Shown piece after piece: positions 31,310 to 33,566 of a stretch of 64,000 nt of DNA. How positions within the stretch are numbered: the stretch's first letter is position 1; every line of letters begins with the position of its first letter. A model generated the notes under the pieces. That model made no database searches, was not told the DNA's origin, and saw only the letters and a program-made list of their open reading frames with translations. The stretch comes from Escherichia coli (lineage in GTDB: Bacteria > Pseudomonadota > Gammaproteobacteria > Enterobacterales > Enterobacteriaceae): the NCBI RefSeq assembly GCF_003991155.1, contig NZ_CP031293.1, one strand, 5' to 3'. Position numbers and translations under genes: made by a program.

Positions 31310-32635
31310 ATGAGCAAAGTAACTCCCCAGCCGAAAATCGGCTTTGTTTCCCTTGGCTGTCCGAAAAACCTTGTCGATTCAGAGCGTATTCTCACCGAAC
31401 TACGCACTGAAGGTTATGACGTGGTACCGAGCTATGACGATGCGGACATGGTGATCGTCAACACCTGCGGCTTTATTGACAGCGCGGTACAAGAATCACT
31501 GGAAGCCATTGGTGAAGCGTTGAATGAAAACGGCAAGGTAATTGTGACCGGTTGTCTGGGGGCAAAAGAAGATCAGATCCGCGAAGTCCACCCGAAAGTG
31601 CTGGAAATCACCGGGCCTCATAGCTATGAGCAGGTTCTGGAGCACGTTCATCACTACGTGCCAAAACCGAAACACAACCCATTCCTGAGCCTGGTGCCAG
31701 AACAAGGCGTGAAACTGACGCCGCGTCATTATGCCTATCTGAAAATTTCTGAAGGCTGTAATCACCGCTGCACCTTCTGCATTATTCCGTCTATGCGCGG
31801 CGACCTGGTGAGCCGTCCGATTGGCGAAGTGTTAAGTGAAGCGAAACGTCTGGTTGATGCGGGCGTTAAAGAGATTCTGGTGATCTCGCAGGATACTTCC
31901 GCGTATGGCGTCGATGTTAAACATCGTACTGGCTTCCACAACGGCGAGCCGGTAAAAACCAGCATGGTCAGCCTGTGCGAACAGTTATCGAAACTGGGGA
32001 TCTGGACACGTCTGCACTACGTTTACCCTTATCCGCATGTGGACGACGTCATCCCACTGATGGCAGAAGGCAAAATCCTGCCGTATCTGGACATTCCGCT
32101 GCAGCACGCCAGCCCGCGCATTCTCAAACTGATGAAACGTCCGGGTTCTGTAGATCGCCAACTGGCGCGCATTAAACAGTGGCGCGAAATCTGCCCGGAA
32201 CTGACCCTACGCTCAACCTTTATTGTTGGCTTCCCTGGCGAGACGGAAGAAGATTTCCAGATGCTACTCGACTTCCTGAAAGAAGCACGTCTGGATCGCG
32301 TTGGCTGCTTTAAATACAGCCCGGTTGAAGGTGCAGACGCCAATGCCCTGCCTGACCAGGTTCCGGAAGAAGTGAAAGAAGAACGCTGGAACCGTTTCAT
32401 GCAGTTGCAGCAGCAAATTTCCGCCGAGCGCCTGCAAGAGAAAGTGGGCCGTGAAATTCTGGTGATTATCGACGAAGTGGACGAAGAAGGCGCGATTGGT
32501 CGCAGCATGGCAGATGCACCGGAAATCGACGGCGCGGTTTATCTCAATGGTGAAACCAACGTTAAGCCGGGTGATATCCTGCGTGTGAAAGTCGAGCACG
32601 CCGATGAGTACGATTTGTGGGGTAGCCGGGTTTAA
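31310..32635 (+). CDS. rimO: Ribosomal protein S12 methylthiotransferase RimO
   Basis: 441 aa; radical-SAM CxxxCxxC (CNHRCTFC); recognised sequence. Confidence 0.9.
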
Positions 32636-32808
32636 TTAATTTAAAGGCAGATCTAACAAGGATATTGTTCTTCGATCTGCCTCTGCTACCCTTCCCGATG
32701 TCCTACCCTTACGCACAAAATCCCCTGACGCATAAATCGAGAAAAATGTATCGTACTCGAGGCAACTCTCACTTTTTCACACCAAATTAAAGTTTTGATC
32801 GCAATTAC

Positions 32809-32844
32809 TTGAAATAAGCGTAATGGTTACTATAGTAAACATTA
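32809..32844 (+). promoter_or_regulatory. Putative promoter and operator of the toxin-antitoxin operon
   Basis: TTGAAA (32809) - 16 nt - TATAGT (32831); a 24-bp near-perfect palindrome taatggtTACTATAGTAaacatta (32821-32844) overlaps the -10; SD aagga 7 nt before ATG 32861. Confidence 0.5.
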
Positions 32845-32860
32845 CCACAAGGATGGATGT

Positions 32861-33247
32861 ATGGGTGTGTATAAGGCAAGACGATTCAGCCAAAGCACGA
32901 AAAAACTTGGTATTCACGATAAAGTTCTCATGGCTGCCGCTGAAGAAGTGATGCAGGGCATATGGGAAGCTGATTTAGGTAGCGGTGTCATCAAAAAACG
33001 TTTACCCCTCCAACAAGGAAAGAGTGGTGGAGCCAGAACAATTATCTTTTTTAAATCAGCAAATCATGTGTTTTTTTATGATGGTTGGTCCAGGAGTGGT
33101 CTAAGCAGTAAAGGAACCAAAGAAATCGAAGATGATGAACTGGCGGCCTACAAAAAAATGGCAAATGCATTTCTGGCCTTTAGCAATAAGCAAATAGAGG
33201 ATTTGATCGAAACTGGCTTTTTGATTGAGGTGAAAAATGAGCGATAA
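32861..33247 (+). CDS. Type II toxin, HigB-2 / RelE-ParE superfamily (Gp49-like), 128 aa
   Basis: Core GSGVIKKRLPLQQGKSGGARTIIFFKSANHVFFYDGW resembles the HigB-2/Gp49 motif as I recall it; small basic protein; 11-bp overlap with the downstream HTH gene; accessory insertion relative to K-12. Confidence 0.7.
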   Translation: MGVYKARRFSQSTKKLGIHDKVLMAAAEEVMQGIWEADLGSGVIKKRLPLQQGKSGGARTIIFFKSANHVFFYDGWSRSGLSSKGTKEIEDDELAAYKKMANAFLAFSNKQIEDLIETGFLIEVKNER

Positions 33248-33566
33248 ATTACAAATGATGCTGGAAGATGCAAAGGAACTGAATGCACTGGGCCTGATGT
33301 CTGATAGTGAAGTTGATGCCATTGCCGTCATGGTCAAAGCTCGTGAAGTCAGCGCCCGTATAGCCAAAGTCAAATCAATGACGGGTGAAGAGATCAAAGC
33401 CATCCGCACCCGATACGGCATGTCACAATCCGTGCTGGCACATACAATGGGAATGTCAAAAGAAAGTGTCTCGAAATGGGAACGTAATGAAATAAAACCG
33501 AGCGGCCCGGCATTACGTATTTTGAATACATTGGCAATAAAAGGGCCGGAAGTTTTTGCAAAGTAA
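33237..33566 (+). CDS. XRE-family HTH antitoxin (HigA-2-like), 109 aa
   Basis: C-terminal HTH (IRTRYGMSQSVLAHTMGMSKESVSKWERNE); translationally coupled to the upstream toxin-like ORF. Confidence 0.7.
   Translation: MSDKLQMMLEDAKELNALGLMSDSEVDAIAVMVKAREVSARIAKVKSMTGEEIKAIRTRYGMSQSVLAHTMGMSKESVSKWERNEIKPSGPALRILNTLAIKGPEVFAK

Follow-up and report, generated by a model that had tools for sequence, protein, structure and literature searches.

The window, by which we mean the whole 64-kb (64,000 nt) stretch of an Escherichia coli chromosome analysed here, carries a toxin-antitoxin (TA) gene pair in which the toxin gene comes first. Specifically, the gene order is bssR (minus strand), rimO (31310–32635, plus strand), the two-gene insert, and then dgcI and pdeI (minus strand). 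The TA pair is an accessory island of ~1 kb (window 32642–33641), and a 225-nt spacer separates rimO from the toxin gene (Table 1). In K-12 the rimO–dgcI spacer measures 46 nt; 41 of these, a hairpin included, are replaced by the TA island in the window. The pair was found at the same position in 1138/5426 complete E. coli genomes (about one fifth), O157:H7 and O55:H7 among them, and the 1-kb module is <99% identical in ~40% of these 1138 genomes. Our literature search on the O157 protein accessions and on E. coli "higBA2" returned no paper on the E. coli module or its operator. Downstream of the pair, a perfect inverted repeat with a 12-bp stem (TTAGTACCCCTT gatt AAGGGGTACTAA, 33595–33622) is located between the antitoxin gene and dgcI, whose ends converge; a T-run is absent on both strands, and the repeat was not flagged as terminator-like. 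The dgcI gene itself (minus strand, ~34724) has an 11-bp deletion relative to K-12 that splits it into ORFs 34953–34660 and 34727–33636; in the window strain dgcI is thus apparently a pseudogene caused by a frameshift.

Table 1 Features of the TA promoter and genes (window coordinates), and information content of the operator blocks (alignment positions counted from the palindrome centre).
Feature	Position	Strand	Remarks
-35 hexamer TTGAAA	32809–32814	+	Promoter scan 10/12, 16-nt spacer; TTG kept in related loci
Left operator unit (OL), core GTAAtggTTAC	32820–32830		Fills the -35/-10 spacer; GTAA/TTAC near-invariant and N3 variable in 33 distinct related promoters
-10 hexamer TATAGT	32831–32836	+	At the junction of OL and OR; alignment positions -2 to +4 are 77–100% conserved
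Right operator unit (OR), core GTAAacaTTAC	32835–32845		Reaches from the -10 to the predicted transcription start; GTAA and TTAC blocks conserved
Whole 26-bp palindrome, GTAATGGTTACTA followed by TAGTAAACATTAC	32820–32845		OL + CTATAG junction + OR; 12/13 pairs
Transcription start, inferred	32842–32844	+	Predicted at 6–8 nt downstream of the -10 hexamer
Ribosome-binding site AGGA	32850–32853	+	7 nt before the ATG at 32861; GG at alignment +21 to +23 conserved
Toxin gene, 128 aa	32861–33247	+	PF06296, HigB2-like; Pfam E 4e-32
Antitoxin gene, 109 aa	33237–33566	+	Two N-terminal helices and a C-terminal XRE HTH; HTH_3 E 2e-9
GTAA block	alignment -13 to -10		0.9–2.1 bits
TTACTATAGTAA block	alignment -6 to +6		1.0–1.8 bits
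TTAC block	alignment +10 to +13		0.8–1.7 bits
N3 spacers and most flanks, variable			~0–0.3 bits

In a promoter scan, TTGAAA-16-TATAGT was the sole promoter-like site in the rimO–toxin spacer, with a score of 10/12; its spacing falls in the 16–18-nt range of sigma-70 promoters, for which a transcript would start 6–8 nt downstream of the -10. A palindrome covers its -10 and ends 15 nt upstream of the toxin start codon. This is the arrangement given in the original prediction, which had placed TTGAAA, then TATAGT after 16 nt, with a palindrome over the latter, exactly where we find them. The palindrome is near-perfect, as had been claimed, but its length is 26 bp instead of 24 bp; likewise, a perfect core exists but spans 12 bp (TTACTATAGTAA) and not 10 bp. 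The 64-kb window contains three gapless 26-bp palindromes in which no more than one pair is mismatched, whereas 100 dinucleotide shuffles contained 0.05 on average; when the 225-nt spacer was shuffled, 0.015% of the shuffles produced such a palindrome. Origin of the palindrome by chance is excluded. The composite pattern GTAANNNTTACTATAGTAANNNTTAC was found at a single place in the window and was absent from the shuffles even when three mismatches were allowed.

Isolated GTAA-N3-TTAC sequences outside the operator were found at 40440–40450 and at 61273–61283, the latter in the spacer upstream of an RhtA-like ORF. Since 0.69 matches are expected per window, these two are compatible with chance. 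A perfect 26-bp palindrome (CTGCATGGTTATGCATAACCATGCAG, 62360–62385, followed by ATTTTCT) lies 11 nt past the stop of the RhtA-like ORF and ~120 nt upstream of a Dps-like ORF, and may serve as a terminator or in regulation.

The toxin matched PF06296 over its full length with 111 bits (cut-off 27). According to a published survey, PF06296 comprises HigB2-type toxins with a toxin-first (T/A) gene order (PMC11980606). With a family profile built from 22 homologues, Vibrio cholerae HigB-2 was the only significant relative of solved structure (E 1.3e-4); a single-sequence search of solved structures returned nothing, so that HigB-2 was reached by the family profile only, and among NCBIfam models none matched the toxin. 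It is also 35% identical to ToxP of Coxiella (CBUA0028; tblastn, E 2e-14; identity confirmed). The start of the antitoxin gene overlaps the end of the toxin gene by 11 nt, and overlap or near-abutment was seen in most of 74 related loci with an antitoxin ORF.

For the antitoxin, a profile of 44 cognate proteins compared with solved structures gave HigA-2 as the best match (E 1e-13), followed by P22 C2 and MqsA (E 1e-5 for the latter); a search with the single sequence reached HigA-2 with E 6e-4. The AF2 model (pLDDT 91) predicted confident helices at residues 2–17 and 23–41, in a single-chain prediction that is blind to the distinction between free disorder and folding on binding. Foldseek likewise placed HigA2 first, with the modelled HTH lying on the HigA2 C-terminal domain at an rmsd of 1.1 Å over 62 columns, and listed MqsA and restriction-modification controller proteins among later matches. 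Assignment to the MqsRA family was considered and rejected, as the antitoxin scored below the cut-offs (TIGR03830, 47.1 vs. 61.8; PF15731, 20.6 vs. 30). Its match to MqsA was confined to the HTH part, and the antitoxin has no cysteine and lacks the zinc-binding CxxC domain at the N-terminus. Taken together, the PF06296 and HigB-2 profile matches of the toxin and the HigA-2 profile and fold matches of the antitoxin identify a distant HigBA2-type module: the pair is a distant relative of V. cholerae HigBA2, with the PF06296 toxin first.

To compare the promoter across relatives, we scanned one genome per species by toxin alignment, which yielded 80 loci, and for each of these the toxin start, the downstream antitoxin and the upstream DNA were examined. 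The footprint set comprised 35 loci with 33 distinct operators from Enterobacterales and Legionellales, with toxin identity down to ~36%. These loci were aligned without gaps on the palindrome centre; the register of three of them (L017, L028 and L038; 15 bp, one unit) was set by hand before statistics were calculated. One further locus (L002, strain BS-01, 92% match) was left out on account of a low-quality stretch riddled with homopolymers; it had been considered as a divergent promoter allele and was rejected because that stretch is full of homopolymer errors. Two other records look like data-quality problems, namely a contig 99% identical to the E. coli locus yet binned as a metagenome Collinsella (L003), and a 730-kb "plasmid" record that contains the locus (CP088669.1, H26).

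Between the TTG of the -35 and the ribosome-binding site, only four conserved blocks were present in the 33 promoters (GTAA, then TTACTATAGTAA, then TTAC; Table 1). Weaker peaks of information were seen at the -35 TTG and at the GG of the ribosome-binding site. The TTG lies 24–28 nt upstream of the palindrome centre in 32/35 related loci, and in some relatives it is shifted upstream by another 3–4 nt, so that the overlapping TACTAT would serve as the -10. Toxin homologues were also found on plasmids. Because the sequence upstream of the -35 is unrelated between loci, and because of these plasmid homologues, the palindrome site belongs to the module and not to the host locus. That its blocks alone are conserved in 33 diverged promoters with unrelated flanks indicates that the site moves together with the module. 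Of 1135 E. coli genomes, 1119 share an identical 81-nt promoter region, although these genomes are not independent samples. Two Chimaeribacter loci (L027 and L031) carry a variant single operator, GTACTnnGTAC, that abuts TTGAAA and lies ~70 nt from the assigned toxin start codon, which points to either a long leader or a misassigned start.

We also compared the recognition helix of the antitoxins with the class of operator. The helix reads KESVSK in the enteric class, PSTYQK in the Legionella class and (L/P)ST(V/I)xK in the CACT class. The Legionella class breaks any simple rule, since an enteric-like operator is accompanied by a helix resembling that of the distant class. This correlation between helix and operator class is confounded by shared ancestry and does not amount to proof of the binder.

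From these comparisons, the 26-mer most likely consists of two tandem GTAA-N3-TTAC sites and not of one site for one dimer. The centres of OL and OR are 15 bp apart, and their shared junction CTATAG contains the -10 hexamer. As OL and OR are both palindromes, and as the junction is palindromic as well, the whole reads as a single 26-bp palindrome. The palindromic operator for an HTH dimer that had been proposed is retained as an operator, while the implied single-dimer site most likely gives way to two tandem units. A central TTAC-TATA-GTAA was also considered as the binding unit and rejected, because loci with one unit keep GTAA-N3-TTAC and are devoid of a third GTAA.

The main competitor holds that one antitoxin oligomer would read the 26-bp palindrome as a single symmetric site, as its 12/13 pairs might suggest. 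Some observations indeed run against a pure two-unit reading. Positions -14 and +14 covary across the centre with three types of Watson-Crick pair (A..T in 11, C..G in 5 and G..C in 2), and the symmetry stretches to 28–30 bp in Pantoea and Enterobacter relatives (L018, L019 and L004). In addition, the centres of the GTAA and TTAC half-sites are 7 bp apart, compared with 12 bp in the operator of V. cholerae HigA2. Nonetheless, we regard a single symmetric site as improbable. Only 8–14 of the 33 operators have N3 bases that pair across the global centre, and the left unit alone is kept in Pantoea (L024 and L041) and Providencia (L017). Moreover, ~30 more distant loci, Coxiella pQpH1 included, have a lone palindrome of 19–21 bp and of the form TATAnCACTnAGTGnTATA abutting the -35; its right arm is the -10 and its position is exactly that of OL. 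The outer half-sites of the E. coli palindrome are ~22 bp apart, which is too far for a HigA2-type dimer with its 19-bp operator (PMC11006873). Finally, the single operator variant examined from the 16 non-identical E. coli genomes (C32840G, the middle base of the N3 of OR) lowers the global symmetry and leaves both OL and OR intact.

If a dimer contacts ~19–21 bp, as the longer palindromes of Legionella and of the distant clade suggest, the footprints of OL and OR would overlap in CTATAG. The two units sharing the -10 junction could be non-redundant, forming either a cooperative switch for two dimers or mutually exclusive binding registers, although we consider this rather unlikely. A cooperative switch would be comparable with the paired operators of the restriction-modification controller proteins that appeared among the fold matches. 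If the units are non-redundant, the enterobacterial and Legionella branch of HigBA2 would gain a sharper or toxin-ratio-dependent autoregulation that is absent from the single-operator V. cholerae system.

Among characterized systems, V. cholerae HigBA2 (PDB 5JAA, 8A0W/8A0X; PMC11006873, PMC5416850) offers the closest parallel, even though its sequence similarity to the E. coli pair is remote. There, HigA2 binds the operator as a dimer through its HTH domain and protects 24 bp that include a 7-N5-7 inverted repeat running from just after the -35 over the -10, as established by footprinting and a crystal structure (PMC11006873). Both pairs share a PF06296 toxin and the toxin-then-antitoxin order, and HigA2, the best match in sequence and in fold, resembles the E. 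coli antitoxin in having a toxin-binding part at the N-terminus and, at the C-terminus, an XRE HTH for dimerisation and DNA binding. Judged from sequence only on the E. coli side, the operators are alike too, each being an inverted repeat between the -35 and -10 that covers the -10. They differ in that V. cholerae has a single operator (TGTACGC-N5-GCGTACA, 19 bp), whereas E. coli has two tandem GTAA-N3-TTAC units 15 bp apart. The base-contacting residues R68, E71, N72 and R77 of HigA2 align with E76, S79, K80 and E85 of the E. coli antitoxin (numbering derived from the profile alignment), and differing residues at these positions fit a different target sequence. Another difference is that the N-terminus of free HigA2 is disordered, whereas that of the E. 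coli antitoxin is predicted to form two confident helices.

ToxP/AntitoxP of Coxiella burnetii (CBUA0028/CBUA0027, plasmid QpH1; PMC10098735) has a homologous toxin and the same gene order as the E. coli pair. AntitoxP, and also its complex with ToxP, shifted PtoxP in gel-shift experiments, which used a promoter fragment and not a mapped site, and PtoxP was active only after loss of the plasmid (PMC10098735). As in E. coli, a palindrome abuts the -35 (TTGACA in Coxiella) and its right arm is a TATAGT -10. Unlike in E. coli, the palindrome is single, has a different sequence (TTCACTtAGTGA core) and occupies the position of the left unit only, and the module is plasmid-borne and acts in plasmid maintenance.

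Further systems provide precedents for individual elements. HigA2 of Acinetobacter represses its own promoter in a reporter assay, with the toxin as co-repressor (PMC5906591). E. coli mqsRA (MqsA; PDB 3GN5, 3O9X; PMC4894380) resembles the TA pair in its toxin-first order, in its related HTH and in the N3 between half-sites, as MqsA binds AACCT-N3-AGGTT (PMC4894380). It differs in the zinc-binding N-terminal domain of MqsA and in its toxin, MqsR, which is not a PF06296 protein. HigA of Proteus vulgaris (plasmid Rts1) has two operators, O1 and O2, each an inverted repeat occupied by one HigA dimer via two HTH motifs; both are needed for optimal repression, and binding was reported to be non-cooperative (PMC12266136). 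These paired operators in a promoter recall the E. coli site, but this HigA belongs to another HigA/HigB lineage, which is set against V. cholerae HigA2 in that study (PMC12266136), and its operator sequences are unrelated to the E. coli site.

Based on the comparison across relatives and on these precedents, we propose that the site is probably (at a probability of about 0.75) the autoregulatory operator of a HigBA2-like type II TA operon, with two tandem units interleaved with a sigma-70 promoter and bound by the antitoxin. The toxin gene precedes that of the HTH antitoxin, and the two would be translationally coupled. OL occupies the spacer of TTGAAA-16-TATAGT, and OR extends from the -10 to ~+1. 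Each unit may accommodate a single antitoxin dimer or toxin-antitoxin complex via the C-terminal HTH domains. With OL and OR occupied, RNA polymerase would be denied access to the -10 and the start site, and the operon would be repressed; loss of the antitoxin would lead to its derepression. The sequence analysis itself shows the anatomy of the site, the non-chance origin of its palindrome, the conservation footprint and the families of both proteins, whereas which protein binds, with what stoichiometry, where transcription begins and whether the toxin acts as co-repressor are inferred. The original prediction, in which the HTH antitoxin binds a palindromic operator that overlies the -10 of the promoter of its own gene pair, is supported through the 33-promoter footprint, the HigA-2 family assignment and precedent.

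Binding of the palindrome by a host-encoded regulator, instead of by the antitoxin of the module, is in our view very unlikely, because the motif accompanies the module across genera, genomic contexts and plasmids while the flanks are unrelated, because it occurs just once in the 64-kb window, and because next to it lies the gene for an HTH protein whose family has been shown to bind its own promoter (PMC11006873, PMC10098735). Less probable still is that the palindrome binds no protein and is a by-product of an AT-rich promoter, or a DNA or RNA hairpin (terminator or processing signal), since the region does fold better than shuffles as single-stranded DNA (-5.9 kcal/mol, z -3.9) but this hairpin is weak, AT-rich, free of a T-run and not flagged as terminator-like, its left arm is upstream of the predicted transcription start and so would not be in the RNA, specific tetranucleotides are conserved instead of pairing being kept through compensatory change, and the probability of the palindrome arising by chance is ~1.5e-4.

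The E. coli site, although uncharacterised, is an ordinary example of an autoregulatory operator of known type, and the general view of toxin-antitoxin autoregulation is unchanged. Compared with the earlier reading of this locus, what is refined is the architecture of the operator, now read as two units, and the family of the pair, now assigned explicitly. The two-unit reading provides a concrete operator motif to test, i.e., GTAA-N3-TTAC twice, 15 bp apart and straddling the -10. More broadly, the promoter-embedded operators of the PF06296/HigA2 family are, on the promoters aligned here, conserved in position and swapped in sequence. Such a pattern will be useful for annotation of these modules and for understanding the co-evolution of HTH specificity and operators.

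With regard to the toxin of the window strain, the pair had also been described as a functional, self-regulated unit. Self-regulation is supported by comparison and precedent, but "functional" requires a caveat, as the toxin has R78 where the conserved residue is K78. The active-site residues of HigB2 are K49, R51, R64, Y82 and K84 (PMC10098735). In our profile alignment with HigB2, K45, R47 and R59 of the toxin are conserved, Y82 corresponds to W76, and K84 corresponds to position 78. At this position (codon 33092–33094) the window toxin has R, whereas 90% of family members, and other E. coli alleles too, have K; the exact 43-mer with the R78 codon was found in 50 E. coli genomes only. Given that R78 aligns with the catalytic K84 of HigB2, the toxin of the window strain may be attenuated, which has no bearing on the operator. 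The coding differences from the O157 allele comprise nine synonymous and two conservative changes, consistent with purifying selection.
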